From the IMG/VR virus record IMGVR_UViG_2778261573_000004, positions 1 through 44,824 of that record: 44,824 nucleotides of DNA; one strand, given 5' to 3'. A model generated the notes under the pieces. That model did not search any database. It was not told the origin of the DNA and saw only the letters and a list, made by a program, of their open reading frames with translations. Source of the stretch: a virus (taxonomy: Duplodnaviria; Heunggongvirae; Uroviricota; Caudoviricetes). The translations under genes and the position numbers were made by a program. Every line of letters begins with the position of its first letter. The stretch's first letter is position 1. This document shows, piece after piece, positions 17,203 through 29,979 of this stretch.

Positions 17203-18836
17203 TTTTCCTCCGGATCGGTAATGGTCTGGCTCGCAAACTGGTCAGCCTGTGCCCAGCTCGGAAGCGGTAATCCGCGTTTAAGACATGACTCAATTTCTCT
17301 CTGGCGCTGATCAAGCACTTCTTCCCAGTCTTCACCGACGTTTTCACCCACCTCAATCTCGAGGGTGGAAAGTCCGGCATCCAGACCAAGAATGGCGCCT
17401 TTTTTCTCTGCAACCGGATCCACCCAGCCGCGCCCTGGCCCCATCCAGCGCGCGCGAGAATACGCGGCTCTGGCGTCAACAAAATCAGGTGCGCCTGCGG
17501 GCAGGGGTAAATCCTCATTGTCGTGAACTTCTTCAACAAAGGCGGTGAGAATGGGCTGAGCGAAGCCGGTAGAAAAATCGTCCCGGCGGCGAGTCAGTGT
17601 TTTCCATGCCTCCAGCAACGAGGAGCGTGCAGAACTGTAGTTAACGTCAGACCAGTCCTGGGTGACCTGCTGTGGGGACAACCCTGTTCCTGAAGAAAAA
17701 TTACGGAGAACAGCAGATTCGAAGACTTCAAAATTGCTGTAGGGCCGCGCCGCGTTAACCGTCGTGATTTTCTCACCAGGATAAAGAATGGGCATTCGGG
17801 CACCATTCTGAAGTGTCAGACGCCGATCGTTATGGAACTCAACACGCCCGTCCTGATAAGTGCCTAACTCCGACTCGTCATAGGTCTCGCCCAGGGCAGA
17901 CTGAACCATCGCAGGGTCATAGGGTGACTCAATGTAAGCGGCGAATATGGCATTAAGAATTGCTGCCTCAAGCTCACTCTGGTCATACTTCACCAGCATT
18001 TTCAGACGCTGAATAACCGGAGTCAGGATGCCGTTACCGCGGTGCTGCGCGCCACGCTCATGATCAAAATCGTGAACCACATGCGGGCGGCCCCAGTCAG
18101 TTTCACGCGGGATACGCTGCCACGTCATGGTTTTAGCCCCGCTCCACCAGTCACCGATATGGGCCTCCCTGATGTGGTAAGCAACCGGCGCACCGTCCGC
18201 ATCAATTTCAACGCCACCACGGACATTTGGCATATCGAAATTCTGCTGAGGATTACTGAGGCGGTCAGGATCGACAATCTGTACCGTGGTGGCGTAACGC
18301 CCTCTTCCGGGACCAAGCCTGTCAGTTCTGTACTGGAGAATGGCCAGAGCATCCCCGTCAATAAGCTTGTGACGAAATCCCAGGCGCAACATCTGCGACA
18401 CGGTGAGTTTTCGTTCAACATCACAATACCGGCCAGGATCGTTACTCCAGGTCCGCCAGTGCCCGTCCAGTGCTTTTCCGTACTCTTCCGCCCAGGACGC
18501 ATCAAACGCCTTGTTTCCGGTGATCATTCTGAGAACACGGTAATCGGGTTTCATGATGGGGCGGAAGTTGGCACCAACCGCATTATCCAGCAGACGTGTG
18601 ACCGCACCGTTTGCCCAGCCGTCATTACGGACCAGATCGCGTGCGCGGGACACGATGCGATCCCGGTAAATGTTAATTTCATTGTCCGGGGACCACAGCG
18701 CGGGTTGCCAGTTCGCCAGTTGATCGCTGAAAGAGTCAGCTGCGTCATAAGGTACGCGGCTCCCCCCCACCAGCATAGAGGGACGCTGCTGTCGCAACGG
18801 CTGCCCATCAGAGCCCAGTATCTGTACTTTATTCAT
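17199..18836 (-). CDS. Portal protein, lambda gpB family
   Basis: 545 aa; size and position between gpW and the protease; lambda B-like. Confidence 0.9.
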   Translation of the reverse strand: MNKVQILGSDGQPLRQQRPSMLVGGSRVPYDAADSFSDQLANWQPALWSPDNEINIYRDRIVSRARDLVRNDGWANGAVTRLLDNAVGANFRPIMKPDYRVLRMITGNKAFDASWAEEYGKALDGHWRTWSNDPGRYCDVERKLTVSQMLRLGFRHKLIDGDALAILQYRTDRLGPGRGRYATTVQIVDPDRLSNPQQNFDMPNVRGGVEIDADGAPVAYHIREAHIGDWWSGAKTMTWQRIPRETDWGRPHVVHDFDHERGAQHRGNGILTPVIQRLKMLVKYDQSELEAAILNAIFAAYIESPYDPAMVQSALGETYDESELGTYQDGRVEFHNDRRLTLQNGARMPILYPGEKITTVNAARPYSNFEVFESAVLRNFSSGTGLSPQQVTQDWSDVNYSSARSSLLEAWKTLTRRRDDFSTGFAQPILTAFVEEVHDNEDLPLPAGAPDFVDARAAYSRARWMGPGRGWVDPVAEKKGAILGLDAGLSTLEIEVGENVGEDWEEVLDQRQREIESCLKRGLPLPSWAQADQFASQTITDPEEK

Positions 18837-19099
18837 CAGAATCTAAACCTCGCTGGTTTCCGGGGACGAGAGATAATCCCCAGTTGCGCCTGCAGAAGTT
18901 GAATCAGGGCCAGCAGATCAGCCAGGGTGCTTTGCTGATAGGACACTGATCGCGTCCCGTCTCCCTGCGTATAGGAAAACGAAACACCGTGGCTCCCGGT
19001 TGCTAAATCAATGTACGCCTGCTGAGCTTTCGCAAGCGCATCCCTGAGCTGATCGTCAGTCATTGCGCCGGCAAGCAGGCTGGTGTTCCGGTTGAACAT
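18836..19099 (-). CDS. Head-tail joining protein gpW-like
   Basis: 87 aa between terminase large subunit and portal, as in lambda. Confidence 0.7.
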   Translation of the reverse strand: MFNRNTSLLAGAMTDDQLRDALAKAQQAYIDLATGSHGVSFSYTQGDGTRSVSYQQSTLADLLALIQLLQAQLGIISRPRKPARFRF

Positions 19100-19107
19100 G
19101 ATTTTCC

Positions 19108-21237
19108 TTATTTCGGCAGGAGTTGCGATATTCGCTTACGTTTGACCGGCGCTGGTTCTTCAATAACCGCACCCGGCAGCTCGTAATTGATTTTTTCTTC
19201 CTGTCCAACTGGCGCTGGCAGGAACTTATCCGGATCGGCTTCGAGGTTGGCGGCCCGGACGTTGAGTTTTAACCCCATATGTTTGAGACCGCACAGCGCG
19301 GCATAGCTGTAAACGAGGCAGTCAAGCGCTTCGTTAGCTCGTCCTGGTATTGCTTCCCAGATACTGTACCGCTGCCCGGAAATGACTTTGTAAACCAGTC
19401 GCTCCGCCAGCAGCTGATTGAAGTACCCGAGATCGCGATCGTCAGGAAAATGCATATAACCCGCAGCGGCGGCGCCAGGTTTGGGTGGCTCAAGATGCAG
19501 GCGACCGCGTATCACGTCTTTCGCTGAGTTAACCCCCAGAATGACAGGGCGGAAACTGGCTTTGCTTTTCGATGATGGTCGTTTGGTCGGCCAGACAGGA
19601 TTGCGTTTGCCTCCCTGTGCAGACTCCCCCTTAATTGCCCAGACACGACGGCCAAGACGCTCTTTGGCGAATTCGTATACCTTCTGCGTATGGTGGCCGC
19701 CGGAGTCCATGCACGTTGCCATGATATTCAGGCCGCGCCCGTCACCACGTCGCCAGATCTGTTTCAGGTATGCATCCAGTCGCTTCCAGGGTTCTTCCGT
19801 CTCAAGGTCACCATAAATAACGTCATGCGCGACCGACCACGATTCTTCATCTCTCCCCCAGCCGGTGATCGTAATTTCGAAGCGATCGTCCTGGGTATCA
19901 ACTCCAGCTGTTAACAATGCCACCCCGTCCGGAACGACGGCCGGAAATATTTCCCGGCGCGCCAGCAGAACATCAACAGGGAGCTGTTTCCCATGATTAG
20001 GTCGGTGCGGAAGCCCCATCTGGGTATTCCACCACGCCTGTTCCTTATCCGGATCGCCCTTCGCATCGATATATTTTTTCGCAATATCCGACGGCTTATC
20101 TTTTTGCCAGGGGCTGAAAAGCTTGGATGCCTGGTACCCCGCGTGGTGGTTATCGACTGCCTCCTTTCCACAGGAGGGGCAGATTGCGCGATAGACCGCA
20201 TGCCGTTCCGACTCTGACCATTGCCAGACCTTTTCAACGCTGCCCTCGTCTGCCGCCCGCCAGGCAAGGTCATAATCCATCAGCGGTGAGTGCCGCTCCC
20301 CGCAGCACTCAAATGGGCGCGTCTGATGCCATCGAATAGTGTGCAGAGCTCTGAGGCGCTGTCCTTCGGACCAGCCACTACCACAGCATTCGCAATAGAG
20401 CATCGCCGATTTAGTCAGGTGTTTATCTCCCTCTTTCGGCCACTGAACGTGTTTGAAAAAGTCGGGGAACTGGCGGTGGCCACAGTGCGGGCAAACCACA
20501 GATGCCCGGCGCTGATCGGAGTCGGCGTAGCTGTCAGCAATGCGGCTCTCATCCTCCACCGTCGGCGAACAGGCGCGTACAGACAGCCAGGTCAGGCCAA
20601 ATGTCGCTGTACGCTCTTCGGCCAGCGCAATTGGATCGCCTTCGCGGGTTATCGGGTACTTGTCCACTTCATCCGCCAGCAGGACACGAATCGGACGACG
20701 CGCAAGGTTATCAGGGCTACCAGCACCCGCCAGCGCCAGAAATCCGCCAGTGAATGCCTTGTAAAGAATGGTTTCTTTCGAGCTTTTCTGTTTCGAATCA
20801 CCGATGATTTTACGCAGTACCGGTGTCACCCTTACCAGCGGGCTAATACGCTCTTTCGAAAACTGTTCAGCGGCTTCTTCTTTCGGCTGCAGCAGCAGTA
20901 TCGGACAAGGATCGAGGTGGGCAAAATAGCCAAAAAGGTTTTCCAGCAGTGCTGTCTTCATCAACTGGGTACAGCACATTACAGTGATGATATGAACCCC
21001 GGACTCCGTCGCGGCAAGCATCGGTCCGCGGGCAATTTCTACCGTCGATGTTTCCCAGTTTCCCGAAGTGCTCCCAGCCTCTTTTGCCAGCTTACGATAG
21101 TCATCTGCCCACTGCGGCACACTGATACGCGGCGGGGGTGTCCAGCCTTTGCGGACGCTTAATTCAAGACGCTCAATCTTCTGCCGGGTTAAACTCTGGC
21201 TCTCCGAGGACTGAGATGTGTTTGTGGACATGTTCAA
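19108..21237 (-). CDS. Terminase large subunit, lambda gpA family
   Basis: 709 aa; ATPase and nuclease regions typical of gpA; overlaps the small subunit gene. Confidence 0.95.
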   Translation of the reverse strand: MNMSTNTSQSSESQSLTRQKIERLELSVRKGWTPPPRISVPQWADDYRKLAKEAGSTSGNWETSTVEIARGPMLAATESGVHIITVMCCTQLMKTALLENLFGYFAHLDPCPILLLQPKEEAAEQFSKERISPLVRVTPVLRKIIGDSKQKSSKETILYKAFTGGFLALAGAGSPDNLARRPIRVLLADEVDKYPITREGDPIALAEERTATFGLTWLSVRACSPTVEDESRIADSYADSDQRRASVVCPHCGHRQFPDFFKHVQWPKEGDKHLTKSAMLYCECCGSGWSEGQRLRALHTIRWHQTRPFECCGERHSPLMDYDLAWRAADEGSVEKVWQWSESERHAVYRAICPSCGKEAVDNHHAGYQASKLFSPWQKDKPSDIAKKYIDAKGDPDKEQAWWNTQMGLPHRPNHGKQLPVDVLLARREIFPAVVPDGVALLTAGVDTQDDRFEITITGWGRDEESWSVAHDVIYGDLETEEPWKRLDAYLKQIWRRGDGRGLNIMATCMDSGGHHTQKVYEFAKERLGRRVWAIKGESAQGGKRNPVWPTKRPSSKSKASFRPVILGVNSAKDVIRGRLHLEPPKPGAAAAGYMHFPDDRDLGYFNQLLAERLVYKVISGQRYSIWEAIPGRANEALDCLVYSYAALCGLKHMGLKLNVRAANLEADPDKFLPAPVGQEEKINYELPGAVIEEPAPVKRKRISQLLPK

Positions 21238-21742
21238 TCAGCACCTCTGTCATCCTGTCCGCCGGTACATCCAGATCAGCAGCCATTAGCGGCGCCACCC
21301 TGGACGGCCAGTTAAGCCAGGCATCACGCTGTTGGCGAAAGGCGTTGAATAAAACCTCCTCGGCTGCTGTCAGCTCAATAAGCTGGCCGCTGTCTTTTTC
21401 ATACTGCAGCTTTGCCTGCAGGGCCATGTAATTCTCGCGGATACGTCCCGCTTCCTCTCTCGAAAGATCTGCCCCTTCAGTGAGCATTATCTGGCGGACA
21501 GTTTTATTGATTTCATCACCGTCATCATCGTTATCGCTAACGACGGGAGTTTTCTTTTTCTTCGCGTTCGAGGCGCGCGGGTCTTTGCCATCGCGGTTTT
21601 TCTTCAATGCCGCATCGCTGGCCTCTACGTCAATCAGGTCTCCGTCCATCACAATGAAGCGCCCGGCTTTAATCCACCGGCCAATTGTTTTGCGATCCAC
21701 ACCTGAATGTTGTGCGTACTGACTCTGGTTCATCGTGGTCAT
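21173..21742 (-). CDS. Terminase small subunit, Nu1-like
   Basis: 189 aa; N-terminal HTH-like segment (QSQYAQHSGVDRKTIGRWIKAG); its 3-prime end overlaps gpA and its start sits inside the cos-like repeat cluster. Confidence 0.8.
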   Translation of the reverse strand: MTTMNQSQYAQHSGVDRKTIGRWIKAGRFIVMDGDLIDVEASDAALKKNRDGKDPRASNAKKKKTPVVSDNDDDGDEINKTVRQIMLTEGADLSREEAGRIRENYMALQAKLQYEKDSGQLIELTAAEEVLFNAFRQQRDAWLNWPSRVAPLMAADLDVPADRMTEVLIEHVHKHISVLGEPEFNPAED

Positions 21743-21890
21743 GGGACATCACCTGGGACATTTTCTGGGGTGGGACATTCGCCTGGGACATTTTTGCCAT
21801 GTCCCACCAGAATGTCCCACTGGAATAAACTGGAATAGCCAGAGCTGGCGAGGTGTCCGTAATGATCGCCAGAGGTGGGACATGGGACAC
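21743..21890. repeat. Cluster of GGGACAT / ATGTCCC motifs (cosB-like terminase small-subunit binding elements)
   Basis: Eight copies in about 150 bp: GGGACAT at 21743, 21755, 21772, 21785 and 21877; ATGTCCC at 21799 and 21812; variant GGGACAC at 21884. Lies directly upstream of and overlapping the Nu1-like start. Confidence 0.6.
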
Positions 21891-22032
21891 AAATCTGAAA
21901 GTTGTAGCTAGGAAAACACCGCGGCGCGCAATGCCCGTACCTTACAAAAGTCTCAGGAAGGACCCATTTTTTTAATGGCTTCGACCATTCGCTCCGACTA
22001 TGATTATTCCTATTCAATACAAGGAGAATGTA

Positions 22033-22536
22033 ATGGGTAACAATATAATCAAAATAACTTTCGTAGCCGCAGTGCTGGCATCACCAATTGCTCATGCCCA
22101 GTGGGTAACTAATACTGAAGATGACCTTTTCTCTGGTGGTAAGAAAGCAATGATGCTTGGCGAGGTTTCATCCGACAATGGCGCCATTGTGTTTGACTGC
22201 ACTAAAGAAAAGCTATCGGCGGCATACGTTGAAATGGATAAAAGCACCGAATCACTATCAGAGGTACCAATGGACCTGATAATGAAGGTCGACGGGAATA
22301 CCGCAGTGAAGCTCGATGCTACCCTTTCAAGACGTAATGTTCAGAGCCTCCAGATTCAATCGGATGACGCGGACCAACTAAAAACAGTGCTTAAGCAGCT
22401 TCAGGGGGCGAAATCCAAAGTGTTAGTTGGTGTGCAAACAAAGGATGGCGGAAACCAGCATTCCATGTCAGCCAATGTTTCTGGATCGACAACTGCAGTA
22501 AACAGCTTCATAAAAGCTTGCGAAATTAACTTATAA
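22033..22536 (+). CDS. Secreted/periplasmic protein of unknown function (opposite-strand moron)
   Basis: RBS AAGGAGA 5 nt before ATG 22033; N-terminus MGNNIIKITFVAAVLASPIAHAQ is a classical signal peptide (AHA-Q cleavage); convergent with all flanking phage genes. Confidence 0.6.
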   Translation: MGNNIIKITFVAAVLASPIAHAQWVTNTEDDLFSGGKKAMMLGEVSSDNGAIVFDCTKEKLSAAYVEMDKSTESLSEVPMDLIMKVDGNTAVKLDATLSRRNVQSLQIQSDDADQLKTVLKQLQGAKSKVLVGVQTKDGGNQHSMSANVSGSTTAVNSFIKACEINL

Positions 22537-22546
22537 GTTACTGCTT

Positions 22547-23197
22547 TTATTTTGCCGTCCTGATGGCTTCTGCTATCGCCTGATTTAAAGCAGACGGTAG
22601 CAGTGCGTTCGCCATGGTACGGGCCCTATCCATATACCCCAGCACTGGAGTCACAGGTAGCGCATCACCAAACCGGATCAAAAGCTTTGGAGAACGCTGT
22701 TTGCGTTTCGGTCTTCGCGTCCCGTTAGCGGAACGTTTGGCCCGTCGCTTCTTAGCTTTCATCGGCTTCTTACGCTGCCAGACAGCGTTAACGCCATCAA
22801 CCTCACCTACGAATACATTTTCCTTTGCTTTAAGCTGTGAGAGCTTATTACGCGGCAGGTTGCCGTATTTATTAAGCTTTATGTCTTTCGGGTTAAGCAA
22901 AGCACTTCCATTAAGCTTGTGCTCTCCGCCGAACTCGAAGGGTTCAAGGTAACCAGCAGCAGTATCACGAACAAACACCTTCGCACGAAGGCTGTTTTTC
23001 CTGGCACCAACTGACCCAACCGATTTAACTGTAAAAGGTGTTGGATTATCCAGATTCCGCTCAAATGCTGTTTTTTGGGCCGCTTCTATCTGGCGAACCA
23101 CTTTAGTCATAGCCTGGGCAGTCGCAAACGGTATTTGCTTCTGCAGCTGTCTTAACTGACTGGAAAGGTCCTTAAGCGTTGCCATATCATTGACCAC
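22547..23197 (-). CDS. Hypothetical phage protein with Lys/Arg-rich C-terminal region
   Basis: 216 aa ORF preceded by the terminator/promoter-like region at 23200-23262; no recognisable family. Confidence 0.5.
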   Translation of the reverse strand: MVNDMATLKDLSSQLRQLQKQIPFATAQAMTKVVRQIEAAQKTAFERNLDNPTPFTVKSVGSVGARKNSLRAKVFVRDTAAGYLEPFEFGGEHKLNGSALLNPKDIKLNKYGNLPRNKLSQLKAKENVFVGEVDGVNAVWQRKKPMKAKKRRAKRSANGTRRPKRKQRSPKLLIRFGDALPVTPVLGYMDRARTMANALLPSALNQAIAEAIRTAK

Positions 23198-23239
23198 CTA
23201 GTTACAGTAATTAAGATCAGTTTGCTCATAAAGTTGACA

Positions 23240-23265
23240 ATAAAAAACCGCCCGTAGGCGGTTAG
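23240..23265 (-). terminator. Rho-independent terminator
   Basis: Minus-strand RNA AACCGCCUACGGGCGGUU followed by UUUUAUU; overlaps the stop codon of the 23262-23666 gene. Confidence 0.65.
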
Positions 23266-23666
23266 TCGAACATTTTATCAAGTTGCTTAGCTAGAGCTCG
23301 GTTAAACAGCTCCTTCGAAACTGTCATCAGCGTGCCCATACTGGCATCTTTGAATCCGGTTTTTAATGTTGCCCAAACCTCTTTGTTACGGAGAGCATCC
23401 AAGAAGTCATGCCCCATCGCGGTCAATCGCAAGGGCATTACAGCCCAGTGAGTCATTCCGTCTAAAGACTGAATAGCACCAAAGCCGGGCTCTCCATCAC
23501 TCCTGATAATCAGCCCTCTATCCTCAAGCAAACGCATATGAAACACAAATGTGTCAGTTTCACAATTGAACCCTAAATCATTTAATCGAATAATATCGGT
23601 ATCAGGTGAATCCGATGCCTCGAAAGCCTCGAGCAAACCTTTAAGGTATTCTTGATCTATTTGCAT
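23262..23666 (-). CDS. Hypothetical protein (possibly DUF2513-like)
   Basis: 134 aa, own terminator downstream; the family name is a weak recollection and is not verified. Confidence 0.45.
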   Translation of the reverse strand: MQIDQEYLKGLLEAFEASDSPDTDIIRLNDLGFNCETDTFVFHMRLLEDRGLIIRSDGEPGFGAIQSLDGMTHWAVMPLRLTAMGHDFLDALRNKEVWATLKTGFKDASMGTLMTVSKELFNRALAKQLDKMFD

Positions 23667-23698
23667 AACCCCTCCGTATGTAAAAGGTTAATTTAACA

Positions 23699-24169
23699 TC
23701 AATTTAAGCACTGCTCTTTGATGTATTCCTGCAAATATCCAACCTGTTTCGTCACTGTGACGATTCGCTCTCTGAGGGTGAAATAATCCCGTTCAGCGGA
23801 GTCAGTAAGTCGGGGGCCGGTAACATCGCCCAGGCCGCCGGTGCTGGTCGTTCCGTTCGCGGGACAGTTTGCGTTGAGCTGCAGCCGCTTACGGCCAGCA
23901 ATGACATCGCTATGCAGACGCTCAATGGTTTCTTTCGCATCAGCCAGTTCTCCGGTGTATTTGGCATCCAGTGCAGCGACATCACGCTGGCGCACCTTCA
24001 TGTCATCGATGGTATTTTTCGCAAGGCTGAGATTCTCAATTGCCTTGTCGCGCTGGTCTTTGTAGGTGATGGCGTTGTCGCGGTAGTGGTTAACGAAGAA
24101 CGCCAGCACGCCGATTACCGACACCACAATCAGTTGCAGCCAGTAACGCTTAACCAGCGCGCCAATCAT
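23699..24169 (-). CDS. i-spanin Rz (lysis cassette B)
   Basis: 156 aa with N-terminal TM helix (LQLIVVSVIGVLAFFV) and coiled-coil periplasmic domain; 4-nt overlap with the endolysin gene. Confidence 0.8.
   Translation of the reverse strand: MIGALVKRYWLQLIVVSVIGVLAFFVNHYRDNAITYKDQRDKAIENLSLAKNTIDDMKVRQRDVAALDAKYTGELADAKETIERLHSDVIAGRKRLQLNANCPANGTTSTGGLGDVTGPRLTDSAERDYFTLRERIVTVTKQVGYLQEYIKEQCLN
23752..23940 (-). CDS. o-spanin Rz1 (embedded in Rz, +1 frame)
   Basis: MRKKPLSVCIAMSLLAVSGCSS has signal peptide and lipobox LAVSGC; Pro-rich mature part; entirely embedded within the Rz ORF. Confidence 0.75.
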   Translation of the reverse strand: MRKKPLSVCIAMSLLAVSGCSSTQTVPRTERPAPAAWAMLPAPDLLTPLNGIISPSESESSQ

Positions 24170-24606
24170 GACAGGAACAGAGCCCGCTCTGCCTCCCGCC
24201 GACGTGTCAGCCCATTCAGCACCTTCCCACCAGCTTTATTCCAGCGCAGGAACTCATCGGCTGCACCAGCGTAATCTCCGGCGTTGAGTTTTCGCAGGAG
24301 AGTCGATGTCGACAATGACCGCGCACCGAGGTTATACGTGAACGACACCAGGGCATCGAATTGCCCCTGAGTCAGGCCAACTTTAACCAGTCGTGACACG
24401 TCACTTTCGTAACTGACCATTCCTGTCTTCAGCAGGCGTTCTGCCGTTTCCTGCTTAATTGTCATCCCGGCACGGATTGGTTTCCCGTCGACGGGCTGAG
24501 TCCAGCCATAACCGATCGTCCAAACGCCGACGCTGTCCTGATAGGCAGTGAGCTTGCAACCTTCGAACTCTTTGATCAGGGCAATGCCTTTATCACTGGT
24601 TTGCAT
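24166..24606 (-). CDS. Endolysin, phage lysozyme (GH24, T4/P22-type)
   Basis: 146 aa; MQTSDKGIALIKEFEGCKLTAYQDSVGVWTIGYG shows the lysozyme E...D...T catalytic spacing. Confidence 0.9.
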   Translation of the reverse strand: MQTSDKGIALIKEFEGCKLTAYQDSVGVWTIGYGWTQPVDGKPIRAGMTIKQETAERLLKTGMVSYESDVSRLVKVGLTQGQFDALVSFTYNLGARSLSTSTLLRKLNAGDYAGAADEFLRWNKAGGKVLNGLTRRREAERALFLS

Positions 24607-24910
24607 TCTTCATCCCCGTCAAGCGTTCCCAGAAATAGGTCAGAGCCACTGAACCCATCGCCCCGCTAATGCCGGACGTGACAAGGATCATGTGAAAACT
24701 CAACCCACTCTCCACGCTTATCAACCCGCCAATCAAACCGGTAAAGCCGGAGACAGCGATCTGTGCCAGCGCGTTTATCCAGCTCCATGTCGCTTTATTC
24801 TGCTTTACGTCGATCAGGTAGCGAACTAAACCGCCCCAGCATGCAATGCCGAGCAGGACTAACCAGGACAGGCCTACAATTTTGTGGTCGTCATTCATAC
24901 GCTTTGCCAT
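24593..24910 (-). CDS. Holin (lysis cassette B)
   Basis: Start at MAKRMNDD (ATG 24910-24908); multiple TM helices; overlaps the endolysin start. The longer ORF to 25102 is rejected because it runs through the terminators. Confidence 0.7.
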   Translation of the reverse strand: MAKRMNDDHKIVGLSWLVLLGIACWGGLVRYLIDVKQNKATWSWINALAQIAVSGFTGLIGGLISVESGLSFHMILVTSGISGAMGSVALTYFWERLTGMKNANQ

Positions 24911-24980
24911 ATCACCTCCGAAGGAACGGGGTGCTGTTTGTGTAGAGTGGAAGGATGCCAGGAAACAACGACCGGACATC

Positions 24981-25009
24981 GCAAATAAAAAAGCCAGCGA
25001 CAGGCTGGC
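24981..25009 (-). terminator. Rho-independent terminator (second of a tandem pair)
   Basis: Minus-strand RNA GCCAGCCUGUCGCUGGC (perfect 6-bp stem) followed by UUUUUUAUUUGC; embedded in a 16-bp direct repeat CGCAAATAAAAAAGCC also found at 25081-25096. Confidence 0.7.
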
Positions 25010-25081
25010 AATGTGAGGGTAAGGCAATGTCGGCTCTCTGGCCGAAGGGTCCCAGGTAGTGGGTTCTGTGTGCTGCGTACC

Positions 25082-25114
25082 GCAAATAAAAAAGCCCCGC
25101 ATAGGCGAGGCTGG
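25082..25114 (-). terminator. Rho-independent terminator (first of a tandem pair), after the peptidase gene
   Basis: Minus-strand RNA GCCUCGCCUAUGCGGGGC (7-bp stem, one mismatch) followed by UUUUUUAUUUGC. Confidence 0.6.
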
Positions 25115-25130
25115 AATCAGACAGGGGGGA

Positions 25131-26033
25131 TTAAGACTGGATATTCCAAATCATTGCGTTACCGTTATGATTTTCAATGATTTTTGCCAGTGGTGCTCCA
25201 CCAAAAGAATGCATGTAGCTGTGATGTATAGTCAAAACCAAATCTTGAAGTACTTGATCACTTTCAAGTTCGGTAACATTCAACCCAATTTTCTGCGCCT
25301 TATCAAAATGAATATGACGCGAGTGGGTATAGGTTGTGTGATGGTTGTTTAACTCTGAACAAACATGTGTTGCTTTTGATTCTGCCTCAGGATCATTATC
25401 AAACATGCCTGTCATAAGCCAATGCTTAACAATCTCATTTGCCCATTTGATTGCTTTCTCACACTCGCCGATGATCGTCGGGTTTAGCTTTTGAAGAATG
25501 AACTGCCACATCTGAACAGCTGCGGGATTTTGAAAAATTTCCGTCTGCGCACGATTCCATTCTTCAATGATGGCATGGGTGGAGAAACCGTTGAACTGAG
25601 GATCAATTGGGCCAATGTTGGACTGTTTACCCATGATGATTTCATTGGCACAACATGCAAGCATAGTTCCGCAGGACATTGAAATCATAGGAACAATTGC
25701 TCTGATGTTAGTTCCAAACTTCGACCTTAAGTAATGCCCGATTGATTCCAAAGCGGCAATATCACCACCTGGAGTATGAAGTATCAAATCCAACCCTTTT
25801 GATACATCTAAACCATTGATGGCTGTCATCAACCCGTTCTTATCATCATCAGTCATCTGAGTAAGATGGCGTACTTCTGCACCACCATGCTGTAACCACC
25901 CTGAGTAATATGTGATTACATTTCTTCCAGTATGATTCGAAAGTTGAGATAAGTATTTACGGCGAACCTCATCCATAGGACTTTTATGGGCGAGAGCCGT
26001 TATCTCGCCCAGTACGTCGCTCCAATTAGGCAT
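25131..26033 (-). CDS. ClpP/S49-fold serine peptidase (resembles SDH-family Clp-fold proteinases), cargo gene
   Basis: 300 aa; LILHTPGGDIAALESIGHYL and MISMSCGTMLACCANE resemble the PGG and nucleophile-Ser motifs of ClpP/SppA-fold peptidases; AT-rich codon usage unlike flanking genes; unrelated in sequence to the prohead protease at 16336-17202. Confidence 0.55.
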   Translation of the reverse strand: MPNWSDVLGEITALAHKSPMDEVRRKYLSQLSNHTGRNVITYYSGWLQHGGAEVRHLTQMTDDDKNGLMTAINGLDVSKGLDLILHTPGGDIAALESIGHYLRSKFGTNIRAIVPMISMSCGTMLACCANEIIMGKQSNIGPIDPQFNGFSTHAIIEEWNRAQTEIFQNPAAVQMWQFILQKLNPTIIGECEKAIKWANEIVKHWLMTGMFDNDPEAESKATHVCSELNNHHTTYTHSRHIHFDKAQKIGLNVTELESDQVLQDLVLTIHHSYMHSFGGAPLAKIIENHNGNAMIWNIQS

Positions 26034-26036
26034 AAA

Positions 26037-26237
26037 TCAGTACGTGTAAAGTTGATGACTTGTAGTTTGGTTTTGCTTCGATTGTGTAGCGGTACCTTGT
26101 GAGTACCAAACACCTGTGTTTCCACTCGTACTAGTTTGCTGTGCCATTACACGAGAAGCGAAGTTGTTAACAGTTTCACCAGTCAACATTTCTGCCGGTT
26201 TGATATTGTAAACATCGTAGAACTCAGCTGGGGTCAT
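26037..26237 (-). CDS. Small hydrophilic protein of unknown function, co-transcribed with the peptidase
   Basis: 66 aa, Thr/Ser/Gln-rich; strong RBS AAAGGAG 8 nt before ATG 26237; stop 3 nt before the peptidase ATG. Confidence 0.45.
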   Translation of the reverse strand: MTPAEFYDVYNIKPAEMLTGETVNNFASRVMAQQTSTSGNTGVWYSQGTATQSKQNQTTSHQLYTY

Positions 26238-26320
26238 AATGATAGCTCCTTTTATAGCGCTACATATAGTGCCTGTGCCAAGGGGGACATACTATATGTG
26301 CCATTGTTGTCATATTTAAA

Positions 26321-26345
26321 TGTGCAAAAAGCCTCAAAAGAGGCT
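26321..26345 (-). terminator. Rho-independent terminator downstream of lysis cassette A
   Basis: Minus-strand RNA GCCUCUUUUGAGGC followed by UUUUUGCACAUUU. Confidence 0.55.
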
Positions 26346-26607
26346 TGAAAAAGATGCAAAAATACTATCTATGACGTGACTATAGCTACTTACCCACAGT
26401 TTATACAAGCCAAAAATGCTAAATTCAGATAATCCTATTCGCTGAAAAACTACACAAAAGCTACGTTCATCTTGTCATTAGATAACGTCAGTAACTTTCA
26501 CTGGATCTAAGCCATTGGTGAAAAAGCTAATTGCATGATGAAGCACTGTAATGTAGCAGTTGAGGTTGTTAAATGAGAATCACCCTAACAATGTCAACGG
26601 ACATTAT

Positions 26608-27144
26608 TCATTTTCGTAACTTCTCAATCTCTCGTATACCCGCCAGGTTATTGTTGCCCTTCTCAATAACAGCCAGCAAAGGTTCAATCCAGAGGACGGC
26701 CTGGCAATACGTCATTGAGCTGGCGGCAGCGGTACTATCATCGGTTGCGTTAGTGTTCCCGGTATCGGGGTGCATTGCGCTGGCACGTAAACGGTACGCG
26801 TATTTGAGCAGCCCACCAGCGACATCAGCAGGAACAGGCAGATCACAGGTCTTTTCACGTCGGAGAATCTCCCGGTATTCGATGACAGTTTTCTCAGTAC
26901 CGGCATCGATCAGCGAGTTAAGGCGGTTGGCGTTCTCTGCTATCTGGTTAAACCGATTGAAGTTGAAAGCCTGTGTAGTTATCACCGTCGCCTGCAGCGC
27001 GTTATCATTACGTAATACCCGATTCTCACTCTGTTCTGTTTCAAGAGCTGAGCGGCTACGAACCAGTAATACGCTAAGCACTGCAATAATGATTACGACA
27101 GCCACCAGCAGAACCGCAACAATCGTAATTTTTCTGGGTTTCAT
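26608..27144 (-). CDS. i-spanin Rz-like (lysis cassette A)
   Basis: 178 aa with N-terminal TM helix (ITIVAVLLVAVVIIIAVLSVLLV) and periplasmic coiled-coil; follows the SAR endolysin with ATGA overlap. Confidence 0.7.
   Translation of the reverse strand: MKPRKITIVAVLLVAVVIIIAVLSVLLVRSRSALETEQSENRVLRNDNALQATVITTQAFNFNRFNQIAENANRLNSLIDAGTEKTVIEYREILRREKTCDLPVPADVAGGLLKYAYRLRASAMHPDTGNTNATDDSTAAASSMTYCQAVLWIEPLLAVIEKGNNNLAGIREIEKLRK
26712..26906 (-). CDS. o-spanin Rz1-like (embedded in Rz)
   Basis: Embedded +1-frame ORF with lipobox LVGCS and Pro-rich C-terminus; the true start may be the internal GTG at 26858. Confidence 0.5.
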   Translation of the reverse strand: MPVLRKLSSNTGRFSDVKRPVICLFLLMSLVGCSNTRTVYVPAQCTPIPGTLTQPMIVPLPPAQ

Positions 27145-27716
27145 CAGAATACCCCCGGAACTGATACCGGAATGCCAGGGTTAAGCGGCCCGAGTCCATC
27201 CCCCAGAACCTGAGGTTTCTCTGCCCACAGGCAAACTTCACGCTCAATCTCACGCCTCGTGATTAAACCCTTCCACTGTTTGTCACCAGCATAGATCCAG
27301 CGCCGCAGTTGTTCGCATGCGCCTTTCGAATCACCCTGGTTGATTTTTCGTAACAGTGTGGAGGTTTTGAAGTTTCCCGCGCCTACGTTATACGCAAATG
27401 AGTACAGCGCCCCTCTCATCGTTTCGGGGATCGGAGCATTGATATATGGGTTAATCTGTCGGGCGACAATATTCAGGTCTTTATCCAGCAGCGCCTGGCA
27501 CTCTGCTTTGGTGTAGGTCTTGCCGAGGATAATATCTTTACCAGTATGGCCCCAGCATACAGTCCACACTCCAACAACATCCCGATAAGGCTGATAGCGT
27601 ACACCTTCAAGGCCATCATTACCCGTTGGGCCAGTAATCAACGCCGCAGCGATAGCAATAGCGCCAGCGGGTATCGCTGCAATAACGCTATTCTTCAGCT
27701 TTGGTGGCATAGCCAT
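27144..27716 (-). CDS. SAR endolysin (phage 21 R21-like lysozyme)
   Basis: N-terminal Gly/Ala-rich signal-anchor-release domain ([19 protein letters not shown]) followed by [28 protein letters not shown], matching my recollection of the phage 21 lysozyme catalytic region. Confidence 0.85.
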
Positions 27717-27966
27717 TGCGCCGATCCTCCCGTTCTTTCCAGCGGAAATACCAGTTCACTGCACAGGTAATAACAGTGCATGCGATACCGACAATAATTG
27801 CCCAGTCGCTCAGGCTTAACCCTGCAATTCTGTCGGCCAACATCCAGGACACCTCTTTTGCTGTTTTAGCTGTTTCGGCATATGCCTTCGCTGATACACC
27901 GCAGCCGGTCAGCGTGGTTCCTGTTCCATATGAAAGTCTGCTGTAAATGGTGCTCATTCTGGTCAT
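27688..27966 (-). CDS. Pinholin (S21-like) with dual-start motif
   Basis: 92 aa; N-terminus MTRM gives two in-frame starts separated by Arg (holin/antiholin arrangement); C-terminus [13 protein letters not shown] resembles the phage 21 pinholin tail. Confidence 0.75.
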
Positions 27967-28173
27967 AGCCTCACCTCCGATTTTTCGGATGGCGCTGTGT
28001 GTGTGTTTGAAAAGGGTCAGGCTTCACGGGCTGGATTTATCAACAAAGCACGTAGCGGATGATTCCCGTGAGCCTGAAATTGATGAATATGTCTGAAATA
28101 ACTAGACCATTAGTAAAACAACTCGATAAATGTGGTTAAATGAGACTACGTTCTCACAACTTAATTAGTACCA

Positions 28174-28344
28174 ATGATTATCAAGCCCTGTCCCTACTGC
28201 GGAAAGTTAATTAACCCAGAATCACTTGTGTGTAGCCACTGCCGGATAGTGAATCCTTTTGTGAAGGCCAGCAGAAGAGAAAAAGCGAAGAATGTATTAG
28301 TAATCGCTCTCGTTGCTGCTTTTTTAATTTGGATGATTCTCTGA
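28174..28344 (+). CDS. Small zinc-ribbon membrane protein (56 aa; below the ORF-track size cut-off)
   Basis: MIIKPCPYCGKLINPESLVCSHCRIVNPF...VLVIALVAAFLIWMIL: CxxC-N9-CxxC zinc ribbon plus C-terminal TM helix. No clear RBS, so confidence is low. Confidence 0.3.
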   Translation: MIIKPCPYCGKLINPESLVCSHCRIVNPFVKASRREKAKNVLVIALVAAFLIWMIL

Positions 28345-28816
28345 GTTGCCAGTTTTCAATGAAGATAATGCGGGCAAAAAAAGCCTGCTCGGACGAACAG
28401 GCATGAAAAATAACAATACCGTCAAGGAGGTGGCGCCGGGTGCCTCCCGGTGGAACAGCCCCAGCCGACTAGTTCCGCGCAAACAAACCTGGACAAAAAA
28501 GTTTGACTGGTCGCCCCTCCGCATAGGGGGATTCACCACACTAAAAATTTAACATCTGATGAAACTCGTTTCAATGCTCTACGACGATGTGACAGGGGTA
28601 TTGATGCAATGCAAATAGACCTACTCTCGGAGCAAGGATAACAACTTTTCCGTACTCTCTTCTGTAAGTTCGAAGTGGATCAATTCTTCGCCATTCTTGA
28701 GAATGTAGAGTTCTTTACTCCCTTTATCATCAGTAGTGATATCAAGGGCATAAATATCAGGCTTGCATAGCGTAATGCCGCCTGTCGTAACTAGCGTCTT
28801 ATTAACGAGGTGACTC

Positions 28817-29092
28817 ATGGGGATACTCTCCGAACTGGATTCTTTACTGGAAAAAATCCCACTGTGGAAAAGGTTAAAAACAGTACCCGACGAAGTGGAT
28901 CGTCTCAAACAGCAGGTCGCCGAGCTTGAGGCATACATCAAATCCAGCGGTGGGGAGAAATGCCCCAGATGCTCACAGATGAGCTATAGCCTTGACCGAA
29001 CCGTAGATGACCCCGATTTCATTGGGCTGGGAGTTCAGAGAGACTATTACAAATGCTCCAGCTGTGGGTACGAAACCTTTAAACAGCGCTGA
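28817..29092 (+). CDS. Coiled-coil plus C-terminal zinc-ribbon protein
   Basis: RBS GAGGTG 5 nt before ATG 28817; CPRC...CSSC zinc ribbon; followed by terminator at 29108-29142. Its start codon overlaps a divergent minus-strand ATG (28818) of a possible 65-aa ORF at 28621-28818. Confidence 0.4.
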   Translation: MGILSELDSLLEKIPLWKRLKTVPDEVDRLKQQVAELEAYIKSSGGEKCPRCSQMSYSLDRTVDDPDFIGLGVQRDYYKCSSCGYETFKQR

Positions 29093-29107
29093 GATTGCAG
29101 AAACGAC

Positions 29108-29142
29108 AAAGCCCAAGGCGTTAACCTCGGGCTTGTATTTTT
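29108..29142. terminator. Hairpin terminator, possibly bidirectional (candidate tR-prime for the late operon)
   Basis: AAGCCCAAGGCGTTAACCTCGGGCTT followed by TGTATTTTT on the plus strand; on the minus strand the same hairpin is followed by UUGUCGUUUCUGC; about 150-180 nt downstream of the Q-like gene stop. Confidence 0.45.
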
Positions 29143-29289
29143 GCTCACTTTCGAGCCGTTACGTTGCTTTTAAAGACTGCCGCTGTCTAACTGCTTTTTA
29201 CTGATGGCTTGCCGACCAACTTTTTTCAAACTTCATGCCGCCACTTAAAGTTAAGGCAGCATATCAAAGTAGACTCAAATATGACGCAT

Positions 29290-29979
29290 TTAATCCAGTT
29301 TTGCAAGACTTGAGTCTAAATTTGTCGCCTTTTGTTGTGAACGTGATCGCGTTACCTGCAAAAGAGAATCGCTATCAAGGCGCCGCAAGGTGGTTTTCAT
29401 CTCCTCCCACCGTTCTGTAAACGTTTCTGACCAGTTCTTCGGGGTCACTCCGACCATGGCGGCAAGCTTTTGGTATTCATACGTCTCACGCCCTGCCAGC
29501 TCTGCTTTCACGTCCTGAGCCGCGAGCCAGACAAGCTTCTTCAGGCGCTCCATCGTTTTGCCGGCCACCTTCTTCGCGCCGAGCTGCTCCCGGAACTCTG
29601 CCCACGCCCATTGAGTGATTTCCACCTGATAGCACCAGCGCACGTTCTCGCTATAGTTCCATAGCAGCCACGCTTTCTGATGGTCTTCAAGCGACAGAAC
29701 AGCGCGGCGCCACGATGCGGTCCCGTACTCTACCGGGCCCACCAGCGCGATAGACGAGCCCTTAGCGCGGGACTGGTTGCCGCTCATCGGCTGGCCGTCA
29801 GGATTGACCATGCGCTGCTTATCCTTGTCGAATACCTTTTTCCGGCCCCGACTCCGCGCCGTCGCGGTGAATTGCGCGTTCTCGGCGAAAGCTACCAGCT
29901 GCCCTTTCGTCGCCCCGCTGAGGTCTGCGGTCGCCACAATGAGCTGCTGACGTACGTATTCCAGTTGCTGACTGTTCAT
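29290..29979 (-). CDS. Putative late-gene regulator / antitermination protein Q-like
   Basis: 229 aa in the canonical Q position (after rusA, before the terminator and lysis genes); assignment is mainly positional. Confidence 0.45.
   Translation of the reverse strand: MNSQQLEYVRQQLIVATADLSGATKGQLVAFAENAQFTATARSRGRKKVFDKDKQRMVNPDGQPMSGNQSRAKGSSIALVGPVEYGTASWRRAVLSLEDHQKAWLLWNYSENVRWCYQVEITQWAWAEFREQLGAKKVAGKTMERLKKLVWLAAQDVKAELAGRETYEYQKLAAMVGVTPKNWSETFTERWEEMKTTLRRLDSDSLLQVTRSRSQQKATNLDSSLAKLD

Follow-up and report, generated by a model that had tools for sequence, protein, structure and literature searches.

Lambdoid phages normally work with a single lysis cassette. The stretch of viral DNA analysed here (44,824 nucleotides, hereafter the window) raises the question of how one prophage came to carry two such cassettes in tandem, and of whether both are used. 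The initial annotation had placed cassette A at 27966-26608 (pinholin, SAR endolysin, Rz and embedded Rz1) and cassette B at 24910-23699 (canonical holin, soluble GH24 lysozyme, Rz and embedded Rz1). Its coordinates and its description of two complete cassettes proved correct, since all eight lysis genes are intact minus-strand ORFs with profile matches, and profile searches identified both sets as lysis modules.

Organization of the late operon

The window is a lambdoid (lambda-like) prophage of the E. coli type. It looks complete: Pfam matches confirmed the integrase, S24 repressor, O, P, Q, TerL and tail sheath, and the portal, protease and capsid were assigned from length-matched ORFs and the annotation of the related prophage ET881. 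Its single late operon lies on the minus strand, with Q first, followed by small cargo genes, cassette A, a 66-aa ORF and an SDH-family protease, terminator hairpins t1 and t2, cassette B, and then the terminase, head and contractile-tail genes, as an unbroken minus-strand array from 29979 down to the tail genes.

The antiterminator gene Q (229 aa; 29290..29979, minus strand; PF06323 at 282 bits) lies immediately upstream of the lysis genes, and the late genes downstream are all on one strand, as in lambdoid Q-dependent operons. The presumed site of the late promoter pR′ is the 3′ end of Q or just beyond it, which places both cassettes between Q/pR′ and the head genes. A promoter-like site at 29341-29313 is a candidate pR′ at the consensus level only (9/12 match), and a strong terminator-like hairpin downstream of Q (29109..29134, minus strand; −24.1 kcal/mol, z = −5.2) is a candidate tR′. 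Between Q and cassette A, on the strand opposite to both, lies a small cargo gene, a 91-aa zinc-ribbon-like ORF (28817..29092, plus strand; weak PF12760 match) that gene callers predict at the same place in L196 and L204. A second plus-strand ORF (56 aa; 28174..28344), with a zinc ribbon, a C-terminal hydrophobic part and weak zinc-ribbon Pfam matches, is predicted in L202 and L205. On the other side, cassette B is followed by a DUF2513 gene (23262..23666, minus strand; PF10711), as in all B-type relatives, the position being the same in ET881 and L196-L205.

The region between the cassettes contains the SDH-family Clp-fold serine protease gene (300 aa; 25131..26033, minus strand; PF01972 at 81 bits, phrog_11747 at E 2e-138), a cargo gene for which PADLOC returned no match. 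The 66-aa ORF (26037..26237, minus strand), predicted by gene callers in many loci, travels with the protease gene as a two-gene moron and also adjoins it in L024, at a different genomic position. Two terminators follow on the minus strand. Hairpin t1 (AGCCTCGCC-TAT-GCGGGGCTTTTTTA) occupies 25087..25112 (25112-25093 in the narrower delimitation); t2 (24993..25009) belongs to the native leader of cassette B and is identical in ET881, where it lies between Q and holin B.

Cassette A combines a phage 21-family holin with a SAR endolysin

The first gene of cassette A (27688..27966) encodes a 92-aa holin that the profiles place in the S21/HP1 class II family (PF16080 at 44.3 bits, cut-off 28.8; PF04971 at 31.6 bits, cut-off 26; phrog_20 at E 3e-21). 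Pinholins of the phage 21 type have two TMDs, the first of which is SAR-like and able to exit the membrane, and they form nanometre-scale holes that depolarise the membrane and do not release soluble endolysin. The initial annotation had called this protein a pinholin with an MTRM dual start. The MTRM motif is present at the N-terminus, together with a GGAGG Shine-Dalgarno sequence, and the protein is 36% identical to an S21-like holin across TMD2 and the C-terminus. Hydropathy reveals one strong TMD (residues 54-72, KD17 of 2.05), and the Gly/Thr/Ser-rich N-terminal segment gives a weak peak of 0.32, versus 0.8 for TMD1 of the S21-like holin. The pinholin half of the claim was itself an extrapolation; family and gene neighbourhood are what suggest that holin A acts in this way.

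The endolysin gene (27144..27716) encodes a 190-aa GH24 enzyme of the R21 type (PF00959), the likely start of which is Met3. Its alignment to the phage 21 lysozyme (PDB 3HDE; E 8e-90, residues 3-166) is full length and takes in the Ala/Gly-rich N-terminal SAR segment as well as the Glu, Asp and Thr residues (LEG...D...T), in agreement with the earlier assignment. A hydrophobic stretch spans residues 6-33, so that the protein combines a Gly/Ala-rich N-terminal domain with the Glu-Asp-Thr triad of T4-like lysozymes.

The Rz-like i-spanin (178 aa; 26608..27144) matched phrog_214 at E 1e-56, has an N-terminal TMD within residues 1-35 and has a counterpart in phage HK225 annotated as an Rz-like spanin. 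The Rz1-like o-spanin (26712..26906), embedded in the +1 frame of this gene and starting at ATG 26906 or GTG 26858, has an LVGC lipobox and a Pro-rich mature part. This is the architecture of embedded two-component spanins, the match of the o-spanin to phrog_456 being weak (E 5e-7). In L011, conservation reaches 95% for the embedded ORF, compared with 85% for the host frame. The Pfam profile search retrieved nothing for this spanin pair.

Cassette B is a canonical holin-endolysin-spanin module

The description of cassette B as a canonical holin, a soluble GH24 lysozyme, Rz and an embedded Rz1 was confirmed by Pfam matches for all four proteins. The holin (105 aa; 24593..24910) belongs to the LydA family (PF16083 at 74.8 bits; phrog_785) and displays the three hydrophobic peaks of canonical three-TMD holins. 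Its gene is preceded by a GGAGG Shine-Dalgarno sequence, and a dual-start-like N-terminus (MAKRM) is seen in holin B besides the MTRM of holin A. The lysozyme (146 aa; 24166..24606; PF00959 at 170 bits) is related to the P22 gp19 type and aligned with PDB 9KBQ (E 2e-51) and PDB 2ANV (E 2e-32). A hydropathy scan detected no hydrophobic stretch, and the alignment to soluble lysozymes begins at residue 1-3; the enzyme lacks an anchor or signal sequence. The Rz i-spanin (156 aa; 23699..24169; PF03245 at 143 bits, phrog_13) has an N-terminal TMD. Its gene contains, in the +1 frame, that of the Rz1 o-spanin (23752..23940; PF06085 at 54 bits; lipobox LAVSGC), the likely start of which is ATG 23940 (MRKKPL...); phrog_3198 matches residues 16-77 of a longer ORF at 23752-23985.

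The cassettes had also been described as non-homologous. This holds for the holins and for the Rz proteins, for which pairwise comparison detected no similarity, but not for the lysozymes, which share a common GH24 fold and 39% identity over 132 aa (E 2e-27). Judged by these comparisons, the two cassettes are not duplicates of each other.

The cassettes were joined within a terminator hairpin

Since lysis cassettes recur from one prophage to another within a genome and may confuse assemblers, mis-assembly, or the juxtaposition of two adjacent prophages, had to be considered. Such an artefact is extremely improbable: the same junction is found in independent NCBI, ENA, Logan and IMG/VR assemblies, on contigs of up to 4.2 Mb, and Q is separated from cassette B by only 4.2 kb devoid of integrase, att site and structural genes. 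The identical A-SDH-B block recurs in 8 of the 10 distinct contexts containing this RzB variant (NCBI, ENA and Logan assemblies), which argues that the tandem is not produced by assembly.

The two halves of the locus match different single-cassette prophages. From the hairpin upwards, the window is 99.9% identical to KL53 (25087-28539) and 99.87% identical to L006 (25087-29715), which carry cassette A and no cassette B; in such A-type prophages, cassette A and the SDH-protease moron sit directly before the terminase. On the other side, it is 97.3% identical to ET881 (13499-25112) and 99.6% identical to L201 (16699-25112), in which Q directly precedes holin B. Both parental types, A-SDH-terminase and Q-B-structural genes, therefore exist as single-cassette prophages. 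The parental tracts overlap only in hairpin 25112-25087, and the junction alignment places the crossover inside t1, within the shared TGCGGGGCTTTTTTA of about 15 bases. The recombination scar proposed in the initial annotation is thereby located at the base-pair level.

The sequence comparison shows that the tandem came from two lambdoid phages that recombined unequally at a terminator hairpin common to both; the explanation as a whole, with late co-expression of the cassettes and redundant lysis (see below), is quite probable. One parent carried t1 downstream of its lysis cassette and SDH moron, and the other a near-identical hairpin upstream of its cassette, between Q and the holin; an exchange within the shared bases retained both cassettes. 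Among 160 IMG/VR loci, members of this terminator family, all on the coding strand, were found upstream of the lysis cassette in 30, downstream in 39 and on both sides in 6, and the hairpin follows SDH in 14 of 20 SDH loci. Unequal crossover is invited by this distribution, because many lambdoid phages have copies bordering the lysis cassette on both sides; for the same reason, the terminator can yield stacking of modules as well as their replacement.

Fifteen shared bases make a very short substrate for homologous exchange, and illegitimate recombination could instead have landed in the hairpin by chance. Phage Rad52-like recombinases recombine short, diverged homologies (PMC3945230), and the window encodes a YqaJ-type exonuclease; these two points make recombination at the hairpin mechanistically plausible.

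Both cassettes are intact, and the arrangement is recent and rare

No inactivating mutation was detected: every lysis protein has a 100% identical counterpart among the single-cassette relatives. The cassette A and SDH proteins are all 100% identical to those of KL53, and ET881 has the same holin B, lysozyme B and Rz1B ORF sequences, the one apparent mismatch being a GTG start recoded as Met. The RzB of ET881 is 90% identical, and that of L201 100% identical, to the RzB of the window. In the isolated phage HK225, the A-type cassette (92-95% identical, same gene lengths) is the sole lysis cassette. Neither cassette displayed signs of decay, repurposing or selection, and nothing supports the earlier suggestion that one of them had been repurposed.

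The combination of a pinholin/SAR set with a canonical set might have been kept by selection, making lysis more robust or easier to tune in different hosts and growth conditions. Public assemblies contain the block, with every protein 100% identical, in four or more upstream mosaic backgrounds, and both cassettes are intact in every copy examined. P1, in which multiple holins and a pinholin contribute differently according to host and condition (PMC9025707), offers a precedent, its LydA being in the same Pfam family as holin B. We nevertheless regard an adaptive dual system as unlikely. Carriers differ by at most 0.15% across the block and, within 23699-27966, at four synonymous sites only. 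With the copies at least 99.85% identical and the cassettes almost free of substitutions, decay has had no time to set in and selection has not been put to the test, so that intactness is uninformative on selection or function. Lambdoid phages also normally manage with one cassette, and a second GH24 lysozyme within 8 kb was found in 0 of 160 related phage loci. No copy of the A-B junction was found in 5,426 complete E. coli genomes, in GTDB representatives or in JGI metagenomes; the arrangement is therefore rare and could be mildly deleterious. It is doubtful, to a similar degree, that A-SDH-B is a circulating, selectively maintained "double-barrelled" module with flanking hairpins as dedicated recombination linkers. 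If it were, lysis would be fail-safe or condition dependent, and the hairpins would enable lambdoid phages to exchange entire cassettes or to stack them. The A-SDH-B arrangement arose very recently, and ordinary phage mosaicism can account for the dual-cassette prophage, rare though it is.

Predicted expression and lysis

Both cassettes remain in their native context: cassette A has retained the Q gene and leader of its single-cassette relatives, and cassette B retains its own leader terminators and precedes its own structural genes. Both cassettes are probably transcribed late, because Q-modified RNA polymerase must read through them to reach the head genes. One cassette might instead be dead or silent, through termination at t1 or t2, poor translation or a subtle defect, leaving one set effectively in use. 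The two intrinsic terminators between the cassettes would fit this possibility, but t1 and t2 also separate Q from holin B in single-cassette relatives, where read-through is needed for late expression, and both cassettes precede the head and tail genes. The strong GGAGG ribosome-binding sites of both holins and the identity of the lysis proteins to those of single-cassette relatives further argue against a silent set, which we consider improbable.

If both cassettes are expressed, established holin biology suggests that the first holin to trigger would collapse the membrane potential, which would free the SAR endolysin and trigger the other holin prematurely. Lysis would then occur at the earlier of two timers, with redundant enzymes and spanins.

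Comparison with known lysis systems

Both cassettes are ordinary and of known kinds, and the mechanism is standard mosaicism, leaving current understanding unchanged. The locus nonetheless unites in one late operon what appear to be the two textbook lysis strategies of phages of Gram-negative bacteria, pinholin plus SAR endolysin and canonical holin plus soluble endolysin. It thus serves as a natural experiment for asking which holin times lysis when the two occur together, and whether redundancy costs burst size or buys robustness. For the debate on phage mosaic formation, the junction is a concrete, base-pair-resolved example in which a short conserved terminator at a module boundary served as the crossover point.

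Cassette A resembles phage 21 in its gene order (holin, endolysin, embedded spanin pair) and MxxM dual start. Unlike in phage 21, holin A has 92 rather than about 71 aa and a weakly hydrophobic N-terminal half outside the coverage of the Pfam models, and the endolysin extends 24 residues beyond R21 at the C-terminus. The spanins are phrog_214 and phrog_456 rather than Pfam Rz/Rz1. Cassette B is similar to those of lambda and P22, with a three-TMD holin, a cytoplasmic P22 gp19-related GH24 lysozyme, and Rz with embedded Rz1. Its holin is in the LydA family (PF16083) and not in the lambda S family; in some relatives (L197, H55), the same lysozyme and Rz are accompanied by a lambda-family holin instead.

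Independent tandem lysis modules, involving cassette A and SDH, are also present in the late region of the lambdoid E. coli FAM21845 prophage (CP017220). In that prophage, the upstream module differs in comprising two holins, a GH19 endolysin and a 116-aa TMD protein, accompanied by a DUF1133 regulator of its own; the two modules are separated by a second Q gene, and the spanin appears incomplete.

The best-studied case of holin redundancy is the P1 lysis system, consisting of LydA, LydC, the pinholin LydD and the SAR endolysin Lyz, in which two holins and one pinholin cooperate (PMC9025707). As in P1, a LydA-family canonical holin, a holin that is probably of the pinholin type and a SAR endolysin occur together in one phage. 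P1 has a single endolysin and lysis genes spread over several operons in an arrangement conserved across the genus, whereas the prophage described here has two self-sufficient tandem cassettes with two endolysins and two spanin pairs.

Organization of the late region

The late genes form an unbroken array on the minus strand of the window, with the gene for the Q antiterminator (29290-29979; PF06323, 282 bits), lysis cassette A (27966-26608; holin, endolysin, and spanin genes), a 66-aa ORF (26037-26237) kept beside the SDH gene for a Clp-fold serine protease (25131-26033; PF01972), two terminator hairpins, t1 (25112-25093) and t2 (25009-24993), lysis cassette B (24910-23699; holin, lysozyme, and Rz/Rz1 genes), a DUF2513 gene (23262-23666; PF10711), and the large terminase gene (19108-21237; GpA domains). 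Two small zinc-ribbon ORFs with weak Pfam matches (28817-29092 and 28174-28344) lie on the strand opposite to the late array. Beyond the terminase gene, on the minus strand, are genes for the portal, S49 protease, and capsid proteins, on which the ET881 annotation and ORF lengths agree, and for a tail sheath detected by Pfam. The right arm encodes P, O, a YdaT-like protein, an S24 repressor, a YqaJ exonuclease, a Dam-type methylase, and an integrase. The window thus looks like a complete lambdoid prophage combining a lambda-like head module with a contractile tail. Between the lysis region and the terminase gene, a gene for a 178-aa protein with a signal-like N terminus (22000-22536, plus strand) adjoins a gene for a 216-aa basic protein without a family match (22547-23197, minus strand); both are kept in ET881-type prophages. 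A PADLOC analysis of SDH, the 66-aa ORF, DUF2513, and the zinc-ribbon ORFs gave nothing meaningful and thus lent no support to reading this cargo as a defense system.

Two complete and distinct lysis cassettes

Pairwise comparison of the two gene sets revealed 39% identity over 132 residues between the lysozymes (E 2e-27), no significant similarity between the holins or between the Rz proteins, and a likeness of the Rz1 proteins restricted to the signal peptide and lipobox. The cassettes are therefore not recent duplicates. The initial annotation had called them non-homologous, which goes too far for the endolysins; these have one fold and are long diverged. An NCBIfam search returned no equivalog-level name for any lysis gene of the window.

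In cassette A, the 92-aa holin exceeded the cut-offs of two Pfam holin families, HP1 and P21, and also matched phrog_20; its N terminus reads MTRM, with a GGAGG site in front. Since the Pfam models reach residues 38-80 only and the hydropathy profile contains a single strong transmembrane domain (TMD), with a weakly hydrophobic segment rich in Gly and Thr at the N terminus, designation of this holin as a probable pinholin rests on family membership and on its pairing with a SAR endolysin. One HP1-family holin is characterized as a pinholin in the account of PMC7312051. The endolysin aligned to the phage 21 lysozyme R21 from the SAR domain through the C terminus (PDB 3HDE, E 8e-90), with the Glu, Asp, and Thr residues of the catalytic motif kept, and carries a C-terminal extension of 24 residues. 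The 178-aa Rz-like protein has an N-terminal TMD and matched phrog_214 (1e-56), although a Pfam search gave no match. The embedded Rz1-like ORF combines a KR-hydrophobic-LVGC signal with a Pro-rich mature part and matched phrog_456 weakly (5e-7). The isolated coliphage HK225, whose sole lysis cassette is of the A type with the same gene lengths (92, 190, and 178 aa) and 92-95% identity, is a functional precedent for this type. Cassette A is accordingly a member of the phage 21/HK225 kind, with one reservation set by the character of TMD1 of the holin.

Cassette B follows the canonical scheme of holin, endolysin, and Rz/Rz1. Its holin belongs to the LydA family (PF16083, 74.8 bits), contains three hydrophobic segments, and starts with MAKRM behind a GGAGG site. 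At this start (24896-24910), Lys-Arg separates Met1 from Met5, the second Met being the start used in the NCBI annotation of the ET881 homologue; a dual holin/antiholin start like that of lambda S107/S105 is possible. The 146-aa lysozyme is devoid of hydrophobic stretches and matched soluble GH24 lysozymes, including P22 gp19. Rz and Rz1 both scored above the Pfam cut-offs, and the lipobox LAVSGC is present. All 15 differences between Rz of cassette B (RzB) and the ET881 protein fall within the N-terminal ~61 residues (23986-24169). The lysozyme and the embedded Rz1, which flank this variable stretch, are identical to those of ET881, and the stretch has the look of a small patch of mosaicism within the spanin gene. 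This RzB variant was also found behind a lambda-family holin in another locus (L197).

Origin of the tandem arrangement

BLAST comparison of the window with its relatives revealed a clean switch of parentage. Positions 13499-25112 are 97.3% identical to a prophage of E. coli ET881 and positions 16699-25112 are 99.6% identical to locus L201 (GCA_022396755.1); in both relatives, holin B directly follows Q. Positions 25087-28539 are 99.9% identical to a prophage of E. coli KL53 and positions 25087-29715 are 99.87% identical to IMG/VR contig 2541047926_000004. In these two relatives, no lysis cassette other than A was found, and in KL53 the DUF1441 and terminase genes come directly after cassette A and SDH. 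The parental tracts overlap at 25087-25112 only, i.e., at hairpin t1. In a three-way alignment, the window has the KL53-type loop TAT and ET881-type sequence after GCGGGGCTTTTTTA, which places the exchange within ~15 shared bases. The suggestion that the tandem is a recombination scar was thus borne out. The t1-type hairpin of the A-type parent terminates the SDH moron (SDH plus the 66-aa ORF); its near-identical counterpart in the B-type parent is the terminator that comes first downstream of Q. Crossing over between these two sites, which are not equivalent in position, retains both cassettes; the reciprocal product would have none. The arrangement, real and rare, is neatly explained by such an unequal crossover at a boundary terminator. 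A reading as tandem prophages or as an assembly artifact was rejected on the basis of gene content and independent assemblies. Phage Rad52-type recombinases recombine short, diverged homologies (PMC3945230), and the window encodes a YqaJ-type exonuclease; machinery of the Rad52 or YqaJ type may have produced the junction.

A hairpin with the stem AGCCTCGC...GCGGGGCTTTTTT and loops that vary lies behind SDH in 14 of 20 SDH loci. The 160 IMG/VR loci centered on R21-like or P22-like lysozymes include 30 with this hairpin upstream of the cassette, 39 with it downstream, and 6 with it on either side; in every case it is on the coding strand. Members of this terminator family in lambdoid late regions share the stem AGCCTCGC / GCGGGGCT and a T-run and differ in the loop. 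Copies (window 25087-25112; L105 7493 and 8966; L118, L053, L133, and others) are located between Q and the holin gene and also immediately downstream of Rz or behind the SDH moron. The family resembles a linker at module boundaries and could promote the swapping or stacking of cassettes. The SDH moron itself is found on either side of lysis cassettes: downstream in most prophages and, in L024, directly after Q and upstream of an S21-type cassette. Its two genes (25131-26237; L024 7795-8900) travel together and have a low GC content of about 44%.

Distribution of the tandem block

The junction was not spanned anywhere in 5,426 complete E. coli genomes, and neither the exact 44-bp junction nor a relaxed pattern (SDH stop to holin B start, about 210 nt) was present in GTDB species representatives or JGI metagenomes. 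No record of the phage collection covered both cassettes, and a second GH24 lysozyme within 8 kb was found in 0 of 160 related phage loci. With the junction in one IMG/VR contig only, the arrangement resembled a singleton, but a search for exact matches to the RzB protein variant revealed many carriers: the variant occurs in 10 distinct contexts, 8 of which contain the full block from cassette A through the 66-aa ORF and SDH to cassette B.

The eight carriers differ in what lies upstream, with four arrangements: Q (PF06323) plus a 91-aa ORF, which is that of the window and of L196 (99.993% identity to the window over 14.5 kb); Q (PF06323) plus a different spacer; lambda-type Q plus an HNH gene; and lambda-type Q plus protein kinase and PP2C genes. 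In L199 and L203, the Ser/Thr protein kinase and PP2C phosphatase pair lies between Q and cassette A (1354-2924). The proteins of both cassettes are 100% identical in all eight carriers. Divergence of the block is at most 0.15%, with only four synonymous sites within 23699-27966, all in holin A. The arrangement is either very young or the repeated product, at the same hairpin, of near-identical parents, two readings that these data cannot separate. Because the block is almost invariant, substitution counts among carriers are uninformative on selection. Upstream of cassette A, similarity among the carriers breaks off at two recurrent points, about 28080 and about 28539-28554, which suggests additional favored sites of exchange between Q and holin A.

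Predicted expression and lysis

Each cassette is in its native context: A has the Q and leader found in contig 2541047926_000004, and B has its own t1/t2 leader in front and its own structural genes behind, an order shared with ET881 and L201. Lambdoid head and tail genes need Q-modified polymerase reading through terminators from pR'. Since these genes lie downstream of both cassettes in the window, any productive late transcription is expected to cross both. Strong ribosome-binding sites are present at both holin genes. Triggering of a holin or pinholin collapses the proton motive force, SAR endolysins are freed by depolarization, and soluble endolysins cannot pass pinholes (PMC9025707). The first holin to fire would set the lysis time and pull the other system along, leading to redundant wall degradation and two spanin complexes. 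Lysis would occur no later than from either cassette alone, possibly at a cost in burst size.

Comparison with known systems

Our literature search found no description of tandem complete lysis cassettes, and there is no sign of new biochemistry in the dual-cassette arrangement. A second, independent kind of lysis stacking is present in E. coli FAM21845 (L195, CP017220, 9522-17276; also L194 and L013), with the order DUF1133 regulator, holin, holin, GH19 endolysin, 116-aa TMD protein, Q, three tRNAs, cassette A, and SDH. The 116-aa protein is possibly a truncated or chimeric spanin. The Q gene between the two modules is a second one. The nearest functional analogue of the combination is phage P1, with two holins, a pinholin, and a single SAR endolysin. 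Unlike the window, P1 has neither a second endolysin nor a further spanin pair, and its arrangement is shared throughout the genus.
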